Shown here piece after piece: positions 3,967 to 24,647 of a stretch of DNA of 26,313 bases; position 1 is the first letter of the stretch; each line of letters starts with the position of its first letter. Location: the NCBI GenBank assembly GCA_919902045.1, contig CAKKSP010000030.1, forward strand, positions 5,276 to 31,588. Reading direction: 5' to 3'. Origin of the DNA: Omnitrophica bacterium GWA2_41_15 (GTDB lineage Bacteria > Omnitrophota > Gorgyraeia > Gygaellales > Profunditerraquicolaceae). The position numbers and the translations under genes are program-made. The notes beneath the pieces were generated by a model. The model saw nothing but the letters and a program-made list of their open reading frames with translations. It made no database searches and was not told the DNA's origin.

Positions 3967-4007
3967 AAAAGCTTATTGAAAATAAACAGGGACACTTTTT
4001 AACAGTC

Positions 4008-4052
4008 AGGGACATTTCTTAAGATATTGTTTACATGTTAAGAAATGTCCCT
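4008..4052. repeat. 45-bp perfect palindromic element, copy 1 (AGGGACATTTCTTAA-N15-TTAAGAAATGTCCCT), 23 nt upstream of the eno ATG
   Basis: The arms at 4008-4022 and 4038-4052 are exact reverse complements. The 15-nt spacer is GATATTGTTTACATG. A degenerate extra left half-site, AGGGACACTTTTTAA, lies at 3988-4002. The element is followed by CTAAAG, as in the other two copies. Confidence 0.9.
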
Positions 4053-4075
4053 AAAGTGAGCGAAAGGAGTTTCAT

Positions 4076-5344
4076 ATGGCTAAAATTAAGAAAGTAATCG
4101 GTAGGCAAATCATTGATTCCCGCGGGAATCCTACAGTTGAAGTGGATATTATTTTAGATAACGGAATATTAGGAAGAGCCTCAGTTCCTTCCGGAGCTTC
4201 AACCGGTGAGAATGAAGCGCTTGAGCTTCGTGATGGAGACAAATCAAAGTATTTAGGTAAAAGCGTTTTAAAGGCGGTAAATAATGTTAATACCGTAATT
4301 GCATCAAAAATAAAGGGTTTAGCTCCTGATTTTGAAAAAGTTGATGCCATTTTGTTAAAAATGGATGGCACGCATAATAAGTCAAATCTTGGTGCAAATG
4401 CAATCCTGGGAGTTTCTATGGCAACTGCTAAGGTAGCTGCACTTTCTAAGAAACAGCCGCTTTATAAATTTCTTAGTAATGGAAAAGCAAAACTTCTTCC
4501 TGTGCCGCTGATGAATATTTTAAACGGCGGTATGCATGCGGATAATAATCTTGATATTCAGGAATTTATGATTATGCCGGTAGGCGCGCCCACGTTTAGT
4601 GAGGCAATGCGCTATGCAGTTGAAGTATTTCATAGTCTTAAGTCAATTCTAAAATCAAAAAAACTTTCCACTTCAGTCGGAGATGAGGGAGGGTTTGCGC
4701 CCAATCTCACTTCTAACGAAGAGGCGTTGAGTTTGATTGTTGAAGCAATTGACAAAGCAGGATACAAAGCAGGAAAAGACGTTTTTCTTGCCTTAGACTG
4801 CGCAGCTAGTTCTTTCTATAAAGACGGGAAATATAGTTTCGAAAATTCTACTAAAACTGCCCAAGAACTAATAAGTATTTATCAGAGTTGGTTAAATAAA
4901 TATCCGATTCTTTCTATCGAGGATGGGCTTTCAGAACACGATAATTCCGGATGGCAGCAGATGACCGCGGCTTTAGGCTCAAGCCTTCAGCTTGTCGGCG
5001 ATGATATCTTTGTGACTAATCCGGGAATCTTTAAAAAAGGTATTGCGCAAAAAATCGGTAATGCTATACTAATAAAAGTAAATCAGATCGGTTCTTTGTC
5101 AGAAACGCTTGAGGTCATGCGTATTGCAAAGCGTAATAAATATAGTTCCATTGTTTCGCACCGTTCAGGCGAGACAGAAGATGCTACTATCGCGCATTTG
5201 GCTGTTGCAACCGGAGCAGGCCAGATTAAAACCGGTTCTCTCTCGCGTACTGATAGGATGTGCAAATATAACGAGCTTTTGCGCATAGAAGAAGAGCTGG
5301 GCAAAATTGCTGTTTATGCTGGTACGCAGTGGAAAAAAAGGTAA
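4076..5344 (+). CDS. eno: Enolase (phosphopyruvate hydratase)
   Basis: N-terminus [24 protein letters not shown]; [10 protein letters not shown]; [12 protein letters not shown]; [17 protein letters not shown]. Canonical enolase signature throughout. RBS AAGGAG at 4064-4069. Confidence 0.95.
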
Positions 5345-5684: not shown

Positions 5685-5696
5685 TAGACAAGAAAT

Positions 5697-5770
5697 CGCG
5701 GGGTGGAGCAGCCTGGTAGCTCGCAAGGCTCATAACCTTGAGGTCGTCCGTTCAAATCGGGCCCCCGCAA
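5697..5770 (+). tRNA. Initiator tRNA-Met (tRNA-fMet, anticodon CAT)
   Basis: CGCGGGGTGGAGCAGCCTGGTAGCTCGCAAGGCTCATAACCTTGAGGTCGTCCGTTCAAATCGGGCCCCCGCAA. It has the C1:A72 mismatch, the three consecutive G:C pairs in the anticodon stem, the CAT anticodon and the TTCAAAT T-loop. Near-identical to E. coli tRNA-fMet. CCA is not encoded. Confidence 0.9.
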
Positions 5771-5780
5771 TGAATTAGTA

Positions 5781-5830
5781 AAAGGGGTCTGGCTCTTTTT
5801 GAAAAAAAGTGCCTGACCCCTTTTTATTTG
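5781..5830 (+). terminator. Probable intrinsic terminator after the tRNA-fMet
   Basis: Long imperfect hairpin AAAGGGGTC(5781-5789)...GACCCCTTT(5815-5823) with an inner GGC-TCTTTTT/AAAAAAG-GCC stem, followed by the T-rich run TTATTTG. Confidence 0.5.
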
Positions 5831-7231: not shown

Positions 7232-10201
7232 ATGTCCTGGTATATTGAAGTAAAAGATAAAGAAGGAATTTTTGATGCTGTAGGTGAAGGTGTAAAAAAA
7301 GATATCCTTGATTTAGGCATCGAAGGGATTAGGGATGTGCGTTTTAGCCAGGCGTATATCCTTAAAGGCGCACTTACTGAAGCAGATGCCAAAAAAATAG
7401 CTTTGCAGCTTTTAACTGATCCAATTGCTCAGGATTTTTCCGTAAAGAAACTTTCTGAAGCTTTGCTTGAGCGTAAAAGCCTGACAGAATCTATCCATAA
7501 GGGAGAATTTGTAGTTGAGGTAGCTTATAATCCCGGAGTAATGGATCCGGCGGAAGCTTCGATACGAAAAGGTATAGAAGATTTATATATAAAAGGAATT
7601 GACGCAGTAAGGAGTACAAAAAAATACCGTATTTTTGCAAATCTTTCCGAAGCACAGCTTAAAAACATCGCAGAAAAACTTTTATACAATAAACTTATCC
7701 AGCATGTTGCGGGTCTTTCCGAAGGAGAAGAAAAAGTGGCGTTAGAGAATACACTTGCTGCTTACGAATTTAAGCTGCGTACCGTAGAGCTTATAGATGC
7801 ATCTGTCAAGAAATTAGAAGAGATCAGCCGTTTAGGGCAGCTCTTTTTGAATTTAGAGGAGATGCAGCAGATACAGAAATATTTCAAGAAATTAAAACGT
7901 AATCCTACGGATTGCGAATTAGAGACAATCGCACAAACTTGGTCAGAGCATTGCGGGCATAAGACGTTTAGGGGGAAGATAAAATATACTGAACAGGTAA
8001 CAGGTAACGGGTCACGGGTCACTACGAAGAAAACAAAATTGATTCATAGTCTGCTTAAATCTACGATTATGAAGGCAACACAGGAATTAAAGAAACCCTG
8101 GTGTGTTTCGGTTTTTAAAGATAACTCCGGAGTCATTCGTTTTGATAAAGATTATAACATATGTTTTAAAGTAGAAACTCACAACCATCCTTCTGCGCTT
8201 GAGCCTTTTGGCGGAGCAAATACCGGAATAGGCGGAGTAATCCGCGATCCGATGGGTACAGGCCTTGGTGCAAAGCCATTTTTAAACACGGATGTTTTTT
8301 GTTTTGCGCCTCCTGAAACTTTATTTAAGGATTTACCTGCCGGCACATTGCATCCTAAAAGAATAATGAAAGGGGTTGTCGCCGGAGTCAAGGATTACGG
8401 AAATAAAATGGGGATACCTACGGTTAATGGAGCAGTACTTTTTCATGAGCGCTTTGTGGGTAATCCTTTAGTTTATTGCGGGACTGCCGGGATACTTCCC
8501 AGAAATATGAGTTTTAAACAGGTTAAAAAAGGAGATCTCGTACTCTTAGTAGGAGGCCGCACCGGAAGAGACGGAATTCATGGCGCTACTTTTTCTTCGG
8601 GAGAATTGACTCATGAGTCAGAGGCTATTTCATCAGGAGCAGTTCAAATAGGTAATCCCATTGAAGAAAAGAAGACGCTTGATACGCTTCTTATAGCCCG
8701 CGACCGAGGGCTCTATCGTTCTATTACTGATTGCGGCGGAGGAGGGTTATCGAGTGCTGTTGGAGAGATGGGTGCTGATTTAGGTGTAGATGTAGATTTA
8801 GAAAATATTCCGCTTAAATACCTCGGGCTAACCTACACTGAAATCTGGATTTCAGAATCACAGGAGCGGATGATTTTATCCGTACCAAAAGATAACTTAG
8901 AAGCATTAATGGAAATTTTCCGAAGCGAAAATGTTGAAGCAGCGGTAATCGGAAAATTCTCCGGAAGTAAGCACCTGAAACTTTATTATCAGAGGAAATT
9001 AGTTTGCGATCTGGATATGGAATTTTTACATAATGGTTTACCTGATTACCATAAGATAGCAACTTTTACTATCCCTAAATTTAAAGAAAATAAAGCTGCT
9101 GTTTCTAAGGACCTCGGTAAAACATTAAAGCAATTATTATCGCATCCGGATATATGCTCAAAAGAGTGGATTATCCGCCAATACGATCATGAAGTGCAGG
9201 GAGGCTCGGTAATTAAGCCGCTTACAGGCGTAGCTAATGACGGGCCGTCTGATGCGGCGGTTGTAAGGCCGTTTCTTGATTCTAAGCGCGGGGTAATTGT
9301 TTCCTGCGGAATAAATTTTCACTATGGATTTCTTGATCCCTATTTGATGGCAGGCTCTTGTATTGATGAAGCGCTGCGCCAAGTCGTTTCCGTAGGCGGT
9401 TCTGTTGAGCGCGTGGCAATATTAGATAATTTTTGCTGGGGGAATCCCGATAAACCTGACCGGCTGGGCAGCCTTGTGCGCGCTGCTTACGGTTGTTATG
9501 ATGCGGCAGTTGGTTTCGGTGTGCCGTTTATCTCCGGGAAAGACAGCCTTTATAATGAATTTACGGTAAAGGGAAAATCCATAAGCATTCCCGGGACGCT
9601 TCTTATATCGGCTATTTCGGTTATGGATGATATTTCAAAAGCTATTACGATGTATGCCAAAGAACCCGGCAATCTCATTTATGTTGTAGGGGATACTTTT
9701 GATGAATTAGGCGGCTCGCATTATTATGCAGTTACCGGAAGATCCGGCGGTTATCCGCCGCTAGTTAATCCTAAAAAAGCCCTGCAAATATTTTCTGCTC
9801 TTGCCAAAGCTTCGCAAAAAAGTTTAATTCAGTCAATGCATGATTGTTCAGAAGGCGGGATTGCCTTAGCTGCGGCAGAGATGGCTTTTGCAGGTGCTTT
9901 AGGGATGGAGCTTTCTGCAGGAGAGATACCTTTTGTGGGAAAATCTCGTTTCGTTAATCAGAAACCGCGGCGCACAAATGAAGTTTTGCTATTTTCTCAA
10001 TCTAATTCGCGTTTTGTTGCAGAGGTGAGGCGTAAAGACCGTATAAAATTTGAAAATTTGCTTCAAGGAGTTTCATTCGGATTAATTGGTTGCGTGACTA
10101 AAGATAAGAACTTCCGGATTTTTGGGTTAGAAGGGAAGCCCTGCATAGAAGAGCATGTTGCCGCGTTAAAAGATGCGTGGCAAAAAACCATGAGGTATTA
10201 G
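7232..10201 (+). CDS. purL: Fusion protein: tandem PurS-like domains + FGAM synthase II (small PurL)
   Basis: Residues 1-80 (IEVKDKEGIFDAVGEGVKKDILDLGIEGIRDVRFSQAYILK...LLTDPIAQDF) match PurS. Residues about 90-165 (VVEVAYNPGVMDPAEASIRKGIEDLYIKGIDAVRSTKKYRI...LLYNKLIQ) look like a second PurS-like domain. Then come smPurL motifs: WSEHCGHKTF, ETHNHPSALEPFGGANTGIGGVIRD, GGRTGRDGIHGATFSS, DCGGGGLSSAVGEM. Confidence 0.85.
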   Translation: MSWYIEVKDKEGIFDAVGEGVKKDILDLGIEGIRDVRFSQAYILKGALTEADAKKIALQLLTDPIAQDFSVKKLSEALLERKSLTESIHKGEFVVEVAYNPGVMDPAEASIRKGIEDLYIKGIDAVRSTKKYRIFANLSEAQLKNIAEKLLYNKLIQHVAGLSEGEEKVALENTLAAYEFKLRTVELIDASVKKLEEISRLGQLFLNLEEMQQIQKYFKKLKRNPTDCELETIAQTWSEHCGHKTFRGKIKYTEQVTGNGSRVTTKKTKLIHSLLKSTIMKATQELKKPWCVSVFKDNSGVIRFDKDYNICFKVETHNHPSALEPFGGANTGIGGVIRDPMGTGLGAKPFLNTDVFCFAPPETLFKDLPAGTLHPKRIMKGVVAGVKDYGNKMGIPTVNGAVLFHERFVGNPLVYCGTAGILPRNMSFKQVKKGDLVLLVGGRTGRDGIHGATFSSGELTHESEAISSGAVQIGNPIEEKKTLDTLLIARDRGLYRSITDCGGGGLSSAVGEMGADLGVDVDLENIPLKYLGLTYTEIWISESQERMILSVPKDNLEALMEIFRSENVEAAVIGKFSGSKHLKLYYQRKLVCDLDMEFLHNGLPDYHKIATFTIPKFKENKAAVSKDLGKTLKQLLSHPDICSKEWIIRQYDHEVQGGSVIKPLTGVANDGPSDAAVVRPFLDSKRGVIVSCGINFHYGFLDPYLMAGSCIDEALRQVVSVGGSVERVAILDNFCWGNPDKPDRLGSLVRAAYGCYDAAVGFGVPFISGKDSLYNEFTVKGKSISIPGTLLISAISVMDDISKAITMYAKEPGNLIYVVGDTFDELGGSHYYAVTGRSGGYPPLVNPKKALQIFSALAKASQKSLIQSMHDCSEGGIALAAAEMAFAGALGMELSAGEIPFVGKSRFVNQKPRRTNEVLLFSQSNSRFVAEVRRKDRIKFENLLQGVSFGLIGCVTKDKNFRIFGLEGKPCIEEHVAALKDAWQKTMRY

Positions 10202-10202
10202 C

Positions 10203-10844
10203 ATGTTTAGAAACGATTTTACAAAAGATGAAACCTGGCGGATCTTTCGTATCATGGCAGAGTTTGTCGATGGTTTTGAAGTCCTCTCTAAGATTGGCCC
10301 GGCAGTATCAATATTTGGTTCCGCGCGTATTAAAAAAAATGACCCTTATTATAAGCTTACAGAGAAAATTACTTACCAGATTGCTAAAGAAGGGTATGCT
10401 GTTATTACCGGCGGCGGCCCCGGGTTAATGGAAGCGGCAAACAAAGGCGCTAAAAAAGCCGAGGGAAAATCTATCGGATTAAATATTCAGATCCCGCTTG
10501 AGCAGAAGGCAAATGCTTATGTAGAAACATTGCTTGATTTCCATTATTTTTTTGTGCGCAAGGTGATGTTTGTGAAATATGCTAAGGCGTTTGTGATCAT
10601 GCCGGGTGGCTTTGGGACGCTAGATGAGCTTTTTGAGAGTTTGAACCTTATTCAGACCGAGCGTATCGGAAAATTTCCGGTAGTTTTAGTAGGTAGAAAA
10701 TATTGGGGCGGGCTTGTGGATTGGCTTAAGACTACGGCATTAAAAAGAGGCTGCCTTGCCCAGGAAGATTTAAGGATATTCAGCCTTGTAGATAAACCGG
10801 AAGAAGTGGTCGAGGAAATTAATAAGTTTTATGGTAAATCCTAA
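10203..10844 (+). CDS. LOG-family (TIGR00730, PpnN/YgdH-like) nucleotide 5'-monophosphate nucleosidase-type protein
   Basis: Diagnostic LOG motifs AVITGGGPGLMEAANKGA and VIMPGGFGTLDELFE. 213 aa. The ATG is 2 nt after the purL stop, and the 3' end overlaps the purQ start by 14 nt. Confidence 0.75.
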   Translation: MFRNDFTKDETWRIFRIMAEFVDGFEVLSKIGPAVSIFGSARIKKNDPYYKLTEKITYQIAKEGYAVITGGGPGLMEAANKGAKKAEGKSIGLNIQIPLEQKANAYVETLLDFHYFFVRKVMFVKYAKAFVIMPGGFGTLDELFESLNLIQTERIGKFPVVLVGRKYWGGLVDWLKTTALKRGCLAQEDLRIFSLVDKPEEVVEEINKFYGKS

Positions 10845-11637
10845 AGTTTTAATATTACGTACTGCCGGAACTAACTGTGACCAGGAGACCGCTTTTGCTT
10901 TTAAGAAGGCCGGCGGAGAGGTTGATTTAGTGCATATTAACCGGCTAATTTCGGGAGAGAAAAAACTTTCTGATTACCAGATTCTTGCCCTCCCGGGTGG
11001 TTTTAGTTATGGTGATGATGTGGCTGCAGGAAAAATTTTAGCAAATGAGCTTAAATATAAACTTGCAGATGATTTAAAAAAATTTATTCAGGATGGGAAA
11101 TTGGTAATTGGCATTTGTAATGGTTTTCAAATCTTAGTAAAAAGCGGTTTTCTTCCCGGGAATTCAGAGCTTAAGCAGGAAACAAGTTTGATTATTAATG
11201 ATTCAGCGAAGTTTGAGGATCGCTGGACGTATTTAAAGTCACAAGTCACAAGTTACAAGTCACAAGTTAATTGTGTTTGGACTAAGGACTTGCCGGAAGT
11301 GATTTATTTGCCGGTGGCACACGGAGAAGGAAAGTTTATCTGTGAAAAATCAGTTTTAGGTAAATTAGAAGAAAACGGCCAGATTGTAATTCAATATTGT
11401 AATCAACAAGGGGTTTTAAGCGGATATCCGGATAATCCTAATGGTTCTATAAAAAATATTGCCGGGATTTGTGATGAAACCGGAAGAATGTTTGGGTTGA
11501 TGCCGCATCCTGAACGTTACATTGATATTTATCAGCATCCGGCAGGTAAATTTGCTGCCTTAAAAAGCGGCCGTAAAGAAGGCGACGGATTTAAAATTTT
11601 TCAAAACGGAGTAGAGTATGCTAAAAAAAACCTGTAA
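10831..11637 (+). CDS. purQ: Phosphoribosylformylglycinamidine synthase glutaminase subunit (PurQ)
   Basis: VLILRTAGTNCDQE, GICNGFQILV (catalytic Cys), PVAHGEG, MPHPER (His/Glu of the triad). 268 aa, the longer PurQ type. Confidence 0.85.
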   Translation: MVNPKVLILRTAGTNCDQETAFAFKKAGGEVDLVHINRLISGEKKLSDYQILALPGGFSYGDDVAAGKILANELKYKLADDLKKFIQDGKLVIGICNGFQILVKSGFLPGNSELKQETSLIINDSAKFEDRWTYLKSQVTSYKSQVNCVWTKDLPEVIYLPVAHGEGKFICEKSVLGKLEENGQIVIQYCNQQGVLSGYPDNPNGSIKNIAGICDETGRMFGLMPHPERYIDIYQHPAGKFAALKSGRKEGDGFKIFQNGVEYAKKNL

Positions 11638-14094: not shown

Positions 14095-14108
14095 TAGGAG
14101 GAGTGATT

Positions 14109-14963
14109 ATGTCGTTATTCTATTTTCTTCTAATGGTTGCAATTTTTATATTTTTTTCAGGAATCAGGATAGTGCGGCCTACGCACAGGGGCTTGATTGA
14201 ACGTTTAGGTAAATATAACCGTTTTGCCGGGTCAGGATTCCATTGGATTTTTCCGGTTTTAGAACGGCTTTTTATGGTAAATGTCACTGAACAGATGGTA
14301 GATGCCGAGCCGCAGGAAATTATCACTAATGATAATTTGAATGCCAGGGTAGATGCACAGGTGTATTTTAAAGTTAAGTTAGAAGAAGAAGACGTGAAGA
14401 GTTCACAATATAATGTTAATAATTACCAATGGCAGATCGTGAATTTAGCCAGGACTACTTTAAGGAATATTATCGGTACCCTTACTTTAAAATCCGCAAA
14501 CAGCGAGCGCGGGAAAATTAATTCGGAATTACATAAAACTCTGCTGGAGGAGACTAAGAGCTGGGGGATTGATATAGTGCGCACGGAATTAAAAGAAATT
14601 GATCCGCCAAAAGACGTGCAAGAAACAATGAATAAGGTGGTTAAGGCAGAAAACGAAAAAATTTCTGCGGTTGATTATGCTACTGCTGTTGAAACTGTCG
14701 CAGATGGCCAGAAGCGCGCAGAAATCAAAAAGGCAGAAGGTGTAAAACAGGCCAGAATCTTACATGCAGAAGGGGAAGCAGAAGCAATTAAGTTAGTTAA
14801 TGAGGCCGCAGAGCATTATTTTGTAGGCAATGCCCAGGTTTTGCGCCGGATTGAAATGGTAGAAAAATCGCTTGAAAATAACGTAAAAGTTGTTGTGCCG
14901 GCAAATACCGAGCTAATAAATGTTCTTGGTGATATGGCAGGGATTATTCCTCTAAAAAAATAA
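14109..14963 (+). CDS. SPFH/band-7 (stomatin/prohibitin-like) membrane protein
   Basis: N-terminal TM (LFYFLLMVAIFIFFSGI), then an SPFH core (IRIVRPTHRGLIERLGKYNRFAGSGFHWIFPVLERLFMVNVTEQMVDAEPQEIITNDNLNARVDAQVYFKV) and an EA-rich coiled-coil C-terminus. RBS AGGAGG at 14094-14099. GTG at 14103 is an alternative start. Confidence 0.75.
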   Translation: MSLFYFLLMVAIFIFFSGIRIVRPTHRGLIERLGKYNRFAGSGFHWIFPVLERLFMVNVTEQMVDAEPQEIITNDNLNARVDAQVYFKVKLEEEDVKSSQYNVNNYQWQIVNLARTTLRNIIGTLTLKSANSERGKINSELHKTLLEETKSWGIDIVRTELKEIDPPKDVQETMNKVVKAENEKISAVDYATAVETVADGQKRAEIKKAEGVKQARILHAEGEAEAIKLVNEAAEHYFVGNAQVLRRIEMVEKSLENNVKVVVPANTELINVLGDMAGIIPLKK

Positions 14964-14968
14964 CCATT

Positions 14969-15000
14969 TTCGACCTACGCGGTCGACCGCGTAGGTCGAA
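14969..15000. repeat. 32-bp perfect GC-rich palindrome (TTCGACCTACGCGGTC|GACCGCGTAGGTCGAA), REP-like element copy A
   Basis: Exact reverse-complement symmetry across the 32 bp. About 65% GC in an AT-rich intergenic gap between the SPFH gene and purD. No T-tract on the + strand; a T-tract follows on the - strand. Confidence 0.85.
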
Positions 15001-15014
15001 GAAGGTAACTTAAG

Positions 15015-16283
15015 ATGAAGATACTAGTAATTGGTTCAGGGGGGAGAGAACATGCGCTTGCCTGGAAGATCTCGCAGTCAAAGCGTGTTGAGAAGATTTT
15101 TTGCGCTCCGGCAAACGCGGGGATTTCAGAAATTGCTGAATCCGTTCCGATTAAAGCAGTAGATATCAATAAACTTTTAGAATTTGCTAAGAAAGAAGCA
15201 GTTGACCTTACGGTAGTTGGGCCGGAGGCTCCGCTTGCTTTAGGCATAGTTGATGAATTTCAGAAAAACGGGCTTAAAATTTTTGGGCCGCAGAGATTTG
15301 CAGCAAAATTAGAAGCCAGCAAAGTTTTTTCTAAGCAGGTTATGGCTAAATATGGAGTGCCGACAGCAGAATTTAAAGTTTTTTCCGATGCTGATCAGGC
15401 AAAGGAATATGTTGCTAAAAAAGGCGCTCCCTGCGTAGTTAAGGCAGACGGATTAGCCCAAGGTAAAGGCGTAGTAGTTGCAAAGACTATAAAAGAAGCT
15501 CAAGATGCGATTACTCTGATCATGCAAGAAGGAGTATTTGGCGAGGCAGGAAATCACGTAGTCATTGAAGAGTGTTTGATAGGACAAGAAGCCTCGATTT
15601 TAATACTCACAGATGCAGAAACTGCAATTCCTCTTGCTTCAAGCCAGGACCATAAACGTGTTTTTGATAATGATGAAGGCCTAAATACCGGAGGGATGGG
15701 GGCATATTCTCCTGCGCCGGCAGTGACTCCTGAAATTTTTAAATATATTGAGCAAAAGATAATTCAACCCATGATTAAAGGGTTAGCTAAAGAAGGGATT
15801 GTTTATCGCGGCGTGCTTTATGCCGGAATTATGCTTACAGCCGAAGGCCCAAAAGTCCTGGAGTTTAATGTGCGTTTTGGGGATCCGGAAACACAGGCGA
15901 TATTACCACGGCTTAAGTCAGATATAGTTGAGGTAATGCTGGCAGTTGCAGAAGGAAAACTTTCCAGTATAAAAAAGTTAGATTGGGATGATCGCGCTTG
16001 TGTATGCGTAACGCTTGCTGCCGGAGGATATCCAGGGCCGTATGAAAAAGCAAAAGTTATCACCGGCCTTGAGGAAGTTAAAAAAATGACAGATGTAATC
16101 GCCTTTCATTCCGGAACACGTAAGTTTGGCGATAAGATTGTTACTGACGGCGGAAGAGTACTTGGCGTTACAGCACTTGGTGCCAATATAAAGGAAGCGA
16201 TTACGCGTTGTTATCAGGGTGTTGATAAGATAAAATTTGAAGGAATGCATTTTCGCCGGGATATTGGGGTGAGAGCGGTTTAA
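15015..16283 (+). CDS. purD: Phosphoribosylamine-glycine ligase (PurD)
   Basis: MKILVIGSGGREHALAWK, ATP-grasp motifs (VVKADGLAQGKGV, EECLIGQEASI, LEFNVRFGDPE), C-terminal GGRVLGVTA. Confidence 0.9.
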   Translation: MKILVIGSGGREHALAWKISQSKRVEKIFCAPANAGISEIAESVPIKAVDINKLLEFAKKEAVDLTVVGPEAPLALGIVDEFQKNGLKIFGPQRFAAKLEASKVFSKQVMAKYGVPTAEFKVFSDADQAKEYVAKKGAPCVVKADGLAQGKGVVVAKTIKEAQDAITLIMQEGVFGEAGNHVVIEECLIGQEASILILTDAETAIPLASSQDHKRVFDNDEGLNTGGMGAYSPAPAVTPEIFKYIEQKIIQPMIKGLAKEGIVYRGVLYAGIMLTAEGPKVLEFNVRFGDPETQAILPRLKSDIVEVMLAVAEGKLSSIKKLDWDDRACVCVTLAAGGYPGPYEKAKVITGLEEVKKMTDVIAFHSGTRKFGDKIVTDGGRVLGVTALGANIKEAITRCYQGVDKIKFEGMHFRRDIGVRAV

Positions 16284-16287
16284 ATCT

Positions 16288-16332
16288 AGGGACATTTCTT
16301 AAGATGTAAATTGCGTGTTAAGAAATGTCCCT
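16288..16332. repeat. 45-bp perfect palindromic element, copy 2, between purD and purE
   Basis: Arms at 16288-16302 and 16318-16332 are identical to copy 1. Spacer GATGTAAATTGCGTG. Flanking T16287/A16333 extends the stem to 16 bp. It begins 5 nt after the purD stop and ends 15 nt before the purE GTG. Confidence 0.9.
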
Positions 16333-16347: not shown

Positions 16348-16833
16348 GTGGCTAAACTAATTAGTATAATTATGGGTAGCGAATCAGATTTAGATACAGT
16401 GCAGGAAGCGGTAAATATCCTTAAGGAATTTAAGGTTGATTTTGAAATTAAGGTGCTTTCTGCCCATCGCAGCCCGAAGGAACTTGAAAAATATATTGAT
16501 ACTGCGCCTAGTCGCGGGGTAAAGGTTTTTATTGCTGCAGCAGGTGGAGCAGCAGCGCTTGCAGGAGTCATTGCTAGTCATACGCCTTTACCGGTAATCG
16601 GGATACCGATTGAAAGTTCGAGTTTAAAAGGAATAGATTCGCTTTTATCAACTGTGCAGATGCCCGGTGGAGTTCCGGTAGCTTGTATGGCAATAGGAAA
16701 AGCCGGGGCGAAAAATGCAGCGCTTTTTGCTTTACAGATCCTTGGAACAAGCGATCAAAAGATCAGTGGCTTTCTTAAAGATTATAAGGTCAGGATGGCA
16801 GAAAAAATTAAGGCGATAAAGTTGAGGTTATAG
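16348..16833 (+). CDS. purE: N5-carboxyaminoimidazole ribonucleotide mutase / AIR carboxylase catalytic subunit (PurE)
   Basis: KLISIIMGSESDLDTV, AAAGGAAALAGV, VIGIPIES, MPGGVPVACMAIG. GTG start at 16348 preceded by RBS AGAGGAG. The ORF-track TTG at 16315 lies inside the palindrome and is rejected. No purK is present in the window. Confidence 0.85.
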   Translation: MAKLISIIMGSESDLDTVQEAVNILKEFKVDFEIKVLSAHRSPKELEKYIDTAPSRGVKVFIAAAGGAAALAGVIASHTPLPVIGIPIESSSLKGIDSLLSTVQMPGGVPVACMAIGKAGAKNAALFALQILGTSDQKISGFLKDYKVRMAEKIKAIKLRL

Positions 16834-22788: not shown

Positions 22789-23336
22789 TTTTAAACCGGC
22801 CGCAAATTGAAAAGCTGATTACGAGCAAAAAATTAGTCGAAGGATTTATAGATTTAAAAATCCAGCTTACGCCTAATGGCATTGATATAACTGTTGCAGA
22901 GGTATTTTCTTTTGTTGGTGCAGGAGCGCTTGATTTTTCTAATAAAGAGAGAATTATTTCGGAGGTAAAACCGCTTACTCCGGAGAAATTAAATCCCCAG
23001 GATAGATTTGGTTGGTGGAAACTTGCTCCCGGAGCATATAAAGTACGCACTAATGAAACTTTTAATATGCCGCATGATTTAGCTGCTCTTGCTTTTACGC
23101 GTAGTTCTTTGCTGCGTTGCGGGGTGTTTATCCAGAACGCGGTATGGGATGCAGGTTTTTGCGGGAAAGCTGAATTTATTCTTGTGGTGCAAAATCCGTT
23201 TGGTTTTAGGCTTAAACAAAACGCGCGCTTGATTCAGCTTGTTTTTTTGAAGATGCGTAAAACTGACGAAGGATATAACGGGATATACCAAGAACGACCT
23301 ACGCGGTCAAAAATTCGACCGCGTAGGTCGACGTAG
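22785..23336 (+). CDS. dcd: dCTP deaminase (Dcd/dUTPase superfamily) with a C-terminus encoded by a palindromic repeat
   Basis: LTPNGIDITV, GWWKLAPGAYKV, AVWDAGFCGKAEFIL. The last 14 codons (ERPTRSKIRPRRST) are read through GC-palindrome copy B. Confidence 0.7.
   Translation: MILNRPQIEKLITSKKLVEGFIDLKIQLTPNGIDITVAEVFSFVGAGALDFSNKERIISEVKPLTPEKLNPQDRFGWWKLAPGAYKVRTNETFNMPHDLAALAFTRSSLLRCGVFIQNAVWDAGFCGKAEFILVVQNPFGFRLKQNARLIQLVFLKMRKTDEGYNGIYQERPTRSKIRPRRST
23295..23330. repeat. GC-rich palindromic REP-like element copy B (CGACCTACGCGGTC-aaaaattc-GACCGCGTAGGTCG)
   Basis: The 14-bp arms are identical to the arms of copy A. An 8-nt A-rich loop is inserted at the centre. An extra CGTAGGT direct repeat follows at 23332-23338. 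It lies inside the dcd 3' end. Confidence 0.85.
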
Positions 23337-23351
23337 GTGAAGACTGCCTAA

Positions 23352-24170
23352 ATGAAAATAAAAAATACCGAAATTAAGGTCATCCAGGGTGATCTTACTG
23401 AATGTAAAGTTGAGGCAATTGTTAATGTTGTTAATAATGAGTTAGTAATAATAGGCACTGTAAGCCCGCCGGTAAAATTTATTATTCATGCCACGACTGA
23501 TGAAGATAGAATCCGTTTATCCTGCCGTAAAGCCTTAAAAGTCGCAGAAGAATTAAAGATAAATTCAATTGTTTTTTCGGCGTTTGGTTGCGGAACAGGG
23601 GGATTCCCTCTTTTAGCTTCCGCAAAGATTATGGGTCAAGAAGTTTTTCGGCATTTAAGGCAAGGCAAGAGTCAGCTTAAAGAGGTAATATTTTGTCTTA
23701 ATAATGATGAGGCATATAAAATTTTTCAAAAAGGCGTTGAAGGTTATCTTGATTATATGGTCAATGTTCTAAATATACGGCCTTACACAACAGTTGATGC
23801 GCTTATTGAAGTTGAAGGCGGAATAGTTTTGATTGAGAGGAGTAATCCTCCTTTTGGCTGGGCTTTGCCAGGCGGGTTTGTGGATTATGGAGAGAGCCTC
23901 GAAGGTGCGGTAAGGCGTGAAGCAAAAGAAGAGACCAGCTTAGATTTAGAAAATCTTAAACAATTCCATACTTATTCTGATCCGGAACGCGACCCGCGGT
24001 TTCATACTATCGGGACAGTTTTTACTGCTACTTCTAAAGGTAAGCCTAAAGCCGGTGATGATGCAGCTGCCCTAAAGGTATTTAAGCCGGAAGAGATCAA
24101 AAAGCTTAAACTTGCTTTTGATCATAGTAAGATTTTAGAAGATTATTTCAGCAGCAGGGACATTTCTTAA
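23352..24170 (+). CDS. Fusion: degenerate macro domain + NUDIX hydrolase (ADP-ribose-processing type)
   Basis: N-terminus [22 protein letters not shown] resembles the macro-domain start (VxQGDIT...DAIVNAAN), but the GGGV diphosphate-binding loop region appears absent. The C-terminal half carries a clear Nudix box [24 protein letters not shown]. Confidence 0.65.
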
Positions 24171-24200
24171 CAAGTAATTTGCCTGTTAAGAAATGTCCCT
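24156..24200. repeat. 45-bp perfect palindromic element, copy 3, overlapping the stop codon of the macro-NUDIX gene
   Basis: Arms at 24156-24170 and 24186-24200 are identical to copies 1 and 2. Spacer CAAGTAATTTGCCTG. The upstream gene's TAA stop (24168-24170) is the last 3 nt of the left arm. It ends 18 nt before the next ATG (24219). Confidence 0.9.
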
Positions 24201-24218
24201 AAAGTGTGTATGTAAAAC

Positions 24219-24647
24219 ATGCGAGTACTCATACATTTTTTGGCAATAACTTTTATTTTATTGCCTGATATTACTACGGCTCAAATGCAGGAAACCAAAC
24301 TCTGCTTTGGCAAAACTTGTATTTTAGCAGAGGTAGCCAATACCCCGGAAACAAGAGCGCGTGGATTAATGTTTAGGGAGAATTTGCCTGAAAACAATGG
24401 AATGCTTTTTGTTTTTGAAAAAACTGATTTTCACGCCTTTTGGATGAAGAATATGAATATTGCTTTAGATTTTATCTGGCTTGATCAGGATAAGCGGGTT
24501 TTATGGATAGATGAGAATATTCTGCCTTGCGTTGAGAAGTGCCCATCGCTTGTACCTACGAAAAAAATAAAGTATGTTTTAGAGGTAAATGCCGGTTGGA
24601 CCAAGCGCCACAATATCAAAGTCAAAAATAAGGTAGTTTTTAATTAA
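24219..24647 (+). CDS. DUF192-family secreted protein
   Basis: N-terminal signal peptide (MRVLIHFLAITFILLPDITTAQ), then ANTPETRARGLMFRE...GMLFVF...FWMKNMNIALDFIWLD...YVLEVNAGW, which is the DUF192 pattern. Confidence 0.6.
   Translation: MRVLIHFLAITFILLPDITTAQMQETKLCFGKTCILAEVANTPETRARGLMFRENLPENNGMLFVFEKTDFHAFWMKNMNIALDFIWLDQDKRVLWIDENILPCVEKCPSLVPTKKIKYVLEVNAGWTKRHNIKVKNKVVFN

Follow-up and report, generated by a model that had tools for sequence, protein, structure and literature searches.

A likely new family of REP/MITE-like dispersed palindromes located mainly at operon junctions in one Omnitrophota lineage

Co-transcribed miniature inverted-repeat transposable elements (MITEs) include the Correia elements of Neisseria (CREE), the enterobacterial ERIC/IRU elements, and the pneumococcal RUP/BOX elements; the Correia elements are 100–155 bp long and are associated with a TA target duplication. 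The subterminal hairpins of insertion sequences (ISs) of the IS200/IS605 group are recognized as single-stranded DNA, and stable hairpins in transcripts are exemplified by the RNase III hairpins in the early and late mRNAs of phage T7 and by operon mRNAs stabilized by repetitive extragenic palindromes (REPs), such as malE-malF. In REPINs, the arms are conserved, whereas the spacers differ between copies and yet form hairpins (PMC3337134). Here, we analyze a 45-bp palindrome that occurs in three copies in a 26,313-nt stretch of an Omnitrophota contig (CAKKSP010000030.1, positions 5,276 to 31,588; hereafter, the window). These 45-mers likely belong to a new REP/MITE-like family of dispersed palindromes (family 1) that was amplified in one Omnitrophota lineage and persists mainly at operon junctions. 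Family 1 works like REP and MITE elements, but we do not file it as a proven member of either class.

The pattern AGGGACATTTCTTAA-N15-TTAAGAAATGTCCCT matches exactly three sites in the window, 4008–4052, 16288–16332 and 24156–24200, with no mismatches at any of them, and has no match in 100 dinucleotide-preserving shuffles, confirming the initial annotation, which had reported three exact copies at these positions, far above chance. Copy 1, with a 15-bp stem and the 15-nt center GATATTGTTTACATG, resides on the plus strand in the divergent intergenic region between an ftsH-like gene and eno (enolase, 4076–5344, plus strand), 23 nt before the eno ATG. Copy 2 (plus strand) fills the junction between purD (15015–16283, plus strand, TAA stop at 16281–16283) and purE (16348–16833, plus strand, 161 aa), beginning 4 nt after the purD TAA and ending 15 nt before the purE GTG, a start that is corroborated by alignment to the purE of a relative and by independent gene calls. 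Copy 3 (plus strand) ends 18 nt before the ATG of a DUF192 gene (24219–24647, plus strand), and its left arm encodes the last four residues and the stop codon (...RDIS*) of the open reading frame (ORF) of a Macro-NUDIX protein (23352–24170, plus strand), the 3' end of which overlaps this arm. The three distances agree with the earlier description of the copies as lying 15–25 nt before a plus-strand start codon. Two finer points of that description hold only in part: a stop codon 0–5 nt away is found at copy 2 (4 nt) but not at copy 3, where the ORF enters the left arm by 15 nt and the TAA within the arm is the stop, and the trailing CTAAAG follows copies 1 and 3, whereas copy 2 has CTAAAAG. 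The spacers, which had been represented as plain N15, are instead diverged versions of one quasi-palindromic sequence, such that the stem can be extended to 18–23 bp. It is very probable that each of the three window copies is transcribed, one within the eno leader and the other two within operons, and all are identical across the samples from Hainich in which they were found.

The three copies also retain traces of a larger structure. Copy 1 carries an extra direct outer arm, AGGGACACTTTTTAA (3988–4002, plus strand), a C-type variant with 2 mismatches to the arm, beginning 20 nt before the inner left arm; in other copies, an outer arm of this type is found on both sides of the inner hairpin. 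By comparison with such four-arm copies, the AAAGTG at 4053–4058 after copy 1 and the AAAGTGT at 24201–24207 after copy 3 (both on the plus strand) are probable remnants of the right outer arm AAAAGTGTCCCT, and the trailing AAAG(TG) is probably what is left of an arm that is intact in those copies.

Searching a metagenome collection with a relaxed pattern that kept the outer 11 nt of each arm and allowed a gap of 19–27 identified 29 loci, 25 of them on contigs from wells H41 and H43 at Hainich with coverage 5–9. With duplicates from replicate samples removed and a mismatch-tolerant arm search added, this amounts to approximately 30 distinct family-1 hairpin loci in ~340 kb; this sequence was fetched around matches and represents only part of the genome, so that the density of one locus per 6–10 kb is indicative only. 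Family 1 is a dispersed repeat of the genome of one uncultured Hainich groundwater Omnitrophota bacterium, in which essentially all copies are found. It was not found among genomes representing 185,579 species, one genome each, where the relaxed pattern returned only 6 unrelated hairpins (in Lachnospiraceae, Blautia, Saccharibacteria, Bacteroidales and Cypionkella), implying that the organism and its close kin are not among the GTDB species representatives, and the same pattern in viral contigs gave only 2 unrelated hairpins. A protein identical to the window enolase is encoded on Hainich (Germany) groundwater contigs from the 0.2-µm fraction of both wells, and the best named relatives of PurD come from metagenome-assembled genomes of Candidatus Omnitrophota, the closest being only 71% identical. 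The early suggestion of recent spread holds. Several independent Logan assemblies (the 5' ends of L004, L042, L043, L045, L047 and L049) end within the loops of copies 1 and 3 or within a palindrome of a second family upstream of purD (see below), as expected of repeats.

All of the approximately 30 loci are intergenic or overlap only the last five codons of a gene. About half of the hairpin loci (15 of 29) fill tail-to-head operon junctions: an ORF of 100 aa or longer reads toward the element and has its stop codon −15 to +13 nt from one edge, and the opposite edge is 7–29 nt from a start codon reading away. The occupied junctions lie between housekeeping genes and include purD|purE, hisA|hisF, dapA|dapB, argB|argD, folD|metF and glyS|ppdK, and other flanking genes encode an M48 peptidase and a Xer-type recombinase; these are ordinary, mutually unrelated genes. 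Beyond the junctions, one locus is convergent, flanked by a stop codon at either edge, copy 1 is divergent, and several copies lie between a gene end and a canonical promoter of the TTGACA-N17-TAAGAT type, with a T-run after the hairpin. Of the 17 copies that can be oriented, 10 have their polarity directed toward the downstream gene and 7 toward the upstream gene. The association with the upstream stop codon is as tight as that with the downstream start codon, because a compact operon has no other bases to spare for the element. In several cases, the upstream gene takes its final codons and its stop from an arm (...RDIS*, ...RDTF*), and a few outer arms seem to have been remodeled to provide the following gene with its ribosome-binding site and start codon. 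Outer or solitary arms appear to grade into translation start regions at L028 10394–10412, L018 512–535 and L030 1751–1765; in one example, AAGAAGTGTCCCT seems to have turned into GAGGAGTGTCCATG, which provides a Shine-Dalgarno sequence plus ATG. We separately considered the ATG/GTG within the arm (GAAATGTCCCT) as a true start codon and rejected it: the share of copies that have it in frame, about one third, is what chance would give, and more convincing starts with a ribosome-binding site in front of them are available further downstream.

Given this distribution, the proposal made from the three window copies, in which the palindrome would serve eno, purE and the DUF192 gene as their own cis-regulatory RNA or operator, does not hold: the palindrome recurs at some 30 unrelated loci, including his, dap, arg, fol and glyS/ppdK genes, in both orientations (10 versus 7), with equal stop-codon association and with no preference for G·U pairs on the sense strand (see below). 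Related candidates were rejected on similar grounds. A known cis-regulatory RNA would not be expected to show no fixed orientation or to be missing at the orthologous purD-purE junction of a relative, and a scan of the whole window against Rfam 15 detected only tRNA-Met, with no known RNA family at the element. A pathway operator of the PurR or NrdR type, considered because the window contains pur genes and nrdR, does not account for copies in the his, dap, arg, fol and glyS/ppdK junctions, and a regulon operator or promoter does not account for the location of most copies inside operons, a few nucleotides after a stop codon, next to unrelated genes.

Comparison with relatives points in the same direction. 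In the closest relative for which DNA is available (L040), synteny around purD-purE is kept (purD 71% identical), but the gap between the two genes is 16 nt (TGA gtatgcggagggattt ATG) and contains no element, compared to 64 nt here, that is, the 45-nt element plus 19 nt; in a second relative, the gap is 23 nt by gene coordinates. The 21-kb syntenic region of L040 contains no comparable inverted repeats, and there is no substitute structure at its purD-purE junction, an absence that the initial annotation had itself named as refuting its proposal. Variation is also apparent between strains: at one locus (L024 6217–6261 versus L039 3956–4014), an 18-nt outer-arm segment is present in the H43 strain and missing in the H41 strain, the surrounding DNA being otherwise identical. 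Clustered substitutions at this locus alter the 3' end of the neighboring gene.

Alignment of the copies yields the consensus AGGGACATTTCTTAA-CATGTAAATTACATG-TTAAGAAATGTCCCT. The terminal inverted repeats are perfect 15-nt inverted arms, which occur in ACAC, ATCT and CTTT types that are always matched on both sides, whereas the centers, 15–17 nt long, are diverged, quasi-palindromic and related to one another. Many copies have a second, outer pair of arms (AGGGACACTTyTT ... AAGAAGTGTCCCT), each 13–15 nt long and located 0–5 nt outside the inner arms, resulting in nested hairpins of ~80 nt. A polarity can be defined by the asymmetric flanks (tC|AGGG...CCCT|AAAg), which agree with the polarity of the center (...TTTACMTG). 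There is no target-site duplication, that is, no direct repeat of at least 2 nt common to both flanks across the copies, and TA is found on at most one flank. By direct reading, the arm AGGGACATTTCTTAA contains neither an internal palindrome nor GTAG. Integron attC and Xer/dif-like sites were considered as well, but the 15+15+15 geometry and the sequence fit neither R/L boxes nor an 11-6-11 layout.

These features define the position of family 1 among the described systems. As with REPs and REPINs (E. coli REP/BIME and the GI–GIII REPINs of Pseudomonas fluorescens), the element is short, hairpin-forming, extragenic and multicopy in one lineage, leaves no target duplication, and has copies inside operons and after genes, some of them terminator-like. 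The conserved arms, variable spacer and paired changes that keep the hairpin are likewise shared with REPINs (PMC3337134). Unlike REPs, family-1 arms lack GTAG and are not imperfect palindromes, and unlike REPINs, the doublet is nested, with two direct arms on each side, rather than composed of two inverted REP hairpins. Similarly to the CREE, ERIC and RUP MITEs, family 1 is non-coding, has terminal inverted repeats, lies next to genes, would form long hairpins in mRNA, contains −35/−10-like boxes, may provide terminators or RNase III sites, and varies in presence between strains; compared with the Correia elements, it is smaller (45–85 bp) and has no target duplication. Finally, the hairpins, the asymmetric flanks (tC versus AAAg), the lack of duplication and the occurrence in either orientation resemble the ends of IS200/IS605 elements and the ORF-less palindrome-associated transposable elements (PATEs), but IS200/IS605 elements have two different imperfect hairpins flanking tnpA/tnpB, whereas family 1 is a single symmetric palindrome with no associated gene. 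We know of no related full-length IS with ends matching family 1, and none was seen among the loci examined.

The same genome contains a second palindrome family, unrelated to family 1, that is closer to the classical type. Family 2 (TTCGACCTACGCGGTCGA / TCGACCGCGTAGGTCGAA) contains GTAG and usually occurs as inverted doublets, each unit (CGACCGCGTAGGTCG) being a small imperfect palindrome with GTAG, as in classical REPs. In the window, it is present at 14958–15011, between the SPFH gene and purD, and at 23295–23330, at the 3' end of dcd; elsewhere, it was detected at L011 8199, L019 7692–7822 and 8548, L029 4192–4222, L032 58–91, L033 11522–11556, L036 3689 and L037 3739–3772. Family 2 is also found at operon junctions, where its flank GAAGAAGGTAA is often at the position of the ribosome-binding site of the next gene. 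Several family-2 palindromes lie on both sides of a gene (L019:7916–8557, plus strand) for a 213-aa protein resembling REP-associated tyrosine transposases (RAYTs) of the Y1 type. This protein contains the HUH (HFH) and YIHLNP motifs, matches Pfam Y1_Tnp above the cut-off (E 2.8e-9), has 'REP-associated tyrosine transposase' as its only NCBIfam match (E 4.8e-17, below the equivalog cut-off), and has E. coli TnpA-REP (4ER8) as its best PDB match. Judging by these sequence features, the Omnitrophota genome runs at least one REP/RAYT-type system. Thus, as in described REP/RAYT systems, the host genome encodes a RAYT-like Y1 transposase, but this gene is flanked by the GTAG-type family 2, and no RAYT flanked by family 1 is present in the loci examined. 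To our knowledge, REP/RAYT systems have not been described in Omnitrophota, and we found nothing relevant in the literature on palindromic repeats in this phylum.

The surroundings of the RAYT-like gene are themselves unusual. The last ~60 nt of a gene for a repeat-rich giant protein of 2537 aa are duplicated at L019 7620–7682 and 10050–10105, and the duplicates bracket a ~2.4-kb block with family-2 repeats, the RAYT-like gene and an AbiEii toxin gene, which looks like an inserted island. The AbiEii gene is preceded by a likely AbiEi-type antitoxin gene (no Pfam match; judged by eye).

We propose that family 1 spread recently within the lineage at the DNA level, most likely via a single-stranded hairpin intermediate processed by an HUH/Y1-type enzyme (RAYT or IS200/IS605-like) or by another element-specific enzyme, in a manner that would leave no target-site duplication. 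Copies would survive where insertion is tolerated, mainly inside operons in the short stretch that separates a stop codon from the ribosome-binding site after it, and for that reason would look 'placed' just upstream of start codons. Because such junctions are transcribed, each copy would put a very stable hairpin into the mRNA between cistrons, and this hairpin may incidentally be a barrier to 3' exonucleases or a target of RNase III, may terminate transcription at copies that have a T-run after them, or may weakly promote transcription outward. Of this scheme, the transposition mechanism, the enzyme and the effect on mRNA are the parts that we infer.

Several observations weigh against such a history. 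Without GTAG and not self-palindromic, the arms are not those of a textbook REP. A tblastn search of the ~340 kb of loci revealed no transposase beside family 1, the only gene found being the one flanked by family 2, although the first three queries (IS608 TnpA, IS200 TnpA and E. coli RAYT) were approximate versions of these sequences, which makes this negative result weak; the RAYT-like protein encoded in L019, used as a further query, gave the same outcome. The arms are far better conserved than the center, and decayed copies are rare, which could reflect selection on each copy for a host function. The relative used for comparison is distant (71% amino-acid identity), so that insertion here versus loss there is a matter of parsimony. 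Moreover, the copy number refers to ~340 kb of match-centered sequence and not to the whole genome.

The conservation of the arms bears directly on the main rival explanation, namely, that each copy is a selected intercistronic RNA hairpin, the stem of which segments the mRNA through RNase III, shields the upstream 3' end or caps the downstream 5' end. If so, the relative expression of neighboring genes would be set by the hairpin. The hairpin first annotated is supported: the stem of 15 bp is perfect, and as RNA the three window copies with their flanks have folding energies of about −29 to −33 kcal/mol, with z-scores from −4.6 to −6.5, the nested forms reaching −40 to −49 kcal/mol. Overall, hairpin z-scores range from −4.6 to −10.5, and no shuffle folds as well as the element. 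As single-stranded DNA, the bare 45-mers fold at −14 to −16 kcal/mol, and the one nested form that was folded reached −22.7 kcal/mol. About half of the copies fit precisely into the interval from a stop codon to the ribosome-binding site that follows it, and at the junction copies the hairpin leaves the Shine-Dalgarno sequence free, as expected of a functional intercistronic structure; in this respect, the element is similar to the T7 RNase III hairpins and malE-malF, where stable intercistronic stem-loops could define mRNA ends and differential stability.

The compensatory changes that the initial annotation had regarded as a mark of RNA were indeed found in the arms. Stem positions 8, 9 and 11 changed on both sides together in 7 cells, with none broken, and neither the number of such cells nor the covariation score was reached in any of 500 shuffles; the arm variants define sub-families, so these are few events and not seven independent ones. 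On this evidence, the symmetry of the palindrome is evidently maintained: stems are conserved and compensated while centers drift, and decayed copies are rare. Among non-Watson-Crick positions on the sense strand, no bias toward G·U was seen, with G·U versus A·C counts of 4 versus 6 in the stems and 19 versus 18 in the centers. With G·U not favored and both orientations represented, there is no sign of strand-specific, RNA-level selection, and the strand data would fit a palindrome maintained at the DNA level, the power of this test being low (~10 stem events). A palindrome gives the same stem either way, so that both orientations are compatible with a selected hairpin as well. Other observations are less favorable to it: the pur junction of the nearest relative has neither the element nor a substitute structure, copies are also found in convergent, divergent, promoter-proximal or terminator contexts, and both the arm indel between strains and the recruitment of arms as coding sequence or ribosome-binding sites look like drift. 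Furthermore, the T7 and malE-malF hairpins are single-locus, orientation-dependent and conserved, whereas family 1 is multicopy, present in both orientations and missing in relatives. A selected RNA hairpin is compatible with a mobile origin, but as the explanation of the family, we consider it unlikely; of the RNA stem-loop first proposed, the hairpin itself stands, and the dedicated cis-regulatory role does not.

Two genes are bracketed by family-1 copies. In the his operon (L011 10178–10732), hisA and hisF are separated by a gene for a ~150-aa lipoprotein, the C-terminus of which appears, by eye, to be peptidoglycan-binding-like; this gene has family-1 hairpins on both sides, C-type on the left and T-type on the right, resembling a repeat-bracketed gene cassette. 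In L019, the gene for an AAA_14-DUF4143 ATPase (ORF 10285–11433), with its own TTGACA-N17-TAAGAT promoter, lies between two ~80-nt multi-arm family-1 elements (10127–10206 and 11457–11536) that have ~40 nt in common on the left side and AAAAAGTGTCCCTTTTTTTGC on the right side, and that are both followed by T7 runs (terminator-like). Instead of a passive REP/MITE, family 1 might be conceived of as a new kind of element altogether, consisting of arrays of a 15-nt word (two direct and two inverted), without REP hallmarks, bound by a putative protein that moves cassettes into operons, as the two arrangements prompt one to imagine, or controls expression at junctions genome-wide in Omnitrophota; we regard this idea as quite unlikely.

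Still less support can be found for a DNA site at which the arms (up to four per locus, 15–20 nt apart, with a 30-nt center-to-center inversion) bind a dimeric or multimeric repressor or organizer, or for an outward promoter in which TTTACA-16 nt-TAAAGT/TAAAAT reads out of the AAA end and transcription would start 6–8 nt after CCCTAAAGT. The arrays of direct and inverted arms do resemble protein-binding arrays, the −35-like TTTAC(A/C) and the T+AAA(G/A)T end belong to the element's own polarity, with T at the sixth −10 position in 8 of 13 AAA-end flanks, and the AAA end faces the downstream gene in all three window copies. In a simple sigma-70 scan, TTTACA-16-TAAAGT qualifies at copy 1 in the direction of eno. 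However, the only element-borne match at copy 2 points the opposite way, copy 3 has none toward the DUF192 gene, and the counts of promoter-like sites are within the shuffled expectation; the repressor-over-promoter geometry put forward in the initial annotation passes this weak scan on the gene strand at only one of three copies. In addition, the AAA end faces the stop codon of the upstream gene in 7 of the 17 orientable copies, the predicted transcription start falls on or within the Shine-Dalgarno sequence, most copies are inside conserved operons, a few nucleotides after a stop codon, where relatives have no operator or promoter, the genes share no pathway, and the matched double changes in the arms would be unexpected if half-sites drifted independently. 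Some copies may have an incidental outward promoter, which does not explain the family, and overall we judge a DNA site or promoter to be very improbable. No terminator-like site is present at the three window copies, where no T-run follows the stem.

The least credible explanation is an uptake signal of the DUS/USS type or a chromosome-organizing signal (parS/NBS/matS), with the 15-nt arm as a genome-wide word often in inverted pairs: the word is over-represented in one lineage and its inverted pairs are able to double as terminators, but arms with 0–1 mismatch are absent from coding sequence except for the last five codons, solitary arms are rare, nearly all arms being paired in hairpins in intergenic DNA, and DUS/USS and NBS-type words are frequent inside genes, all of which makes such a signal extremely unlikely.

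The likely assignment of family 1 to dispersed, REP/MITE-like palindromes has several implications. It removes a false lead, as the element is not a common regulator of eno, purE and the DUF192 gene, and it documents two junction-colonizing palindrome families together with a RAYT-like transposase in the phylum Omnitrophota, of which hardly any members have been cultured. In practical terms, the repeats of the family fragment short-read assemblies of this organism and shift gene 3' ends and start calls, because the arms provide stops, ribosome-binding sites and spurious in-frame ATG/GTG codons; they could also serve as strain markers. Should the hairpins prove to affect mRNA processing, they would constitute a genome-wide layer of operon tuning, which we offer as a proposal only.

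The window itself is a conserved nucleotide-metabolism cluster with a gene order common to relatives: purN, ftsH-like, eno, tRNA-Met, purB, purSL, LOG, purQ, purF, purM, SPFH and purD, followed by purE, sua5, rpiB, glyA, dCMP deaminase, nrdR and further genes. The pur operon encodes a PurS-PurL fusion (989 aa, 7232–10201), with a LOG/lysine-decarboxylase-like gene between purL and purQ (10203–10844) and an SPFH/Band 7 gene between purM and purD (14103–14963), an arrangement that is kept in distant Omnitrophota relatives. The tRNA-Met gene (CAT, 5696–5771) lies between an ftsB/divIC-like gene and purB, and is followed by a 21-bp inverted repeat with flanking A and T runs (5780–5824) that resembles a bidirectional terminator.

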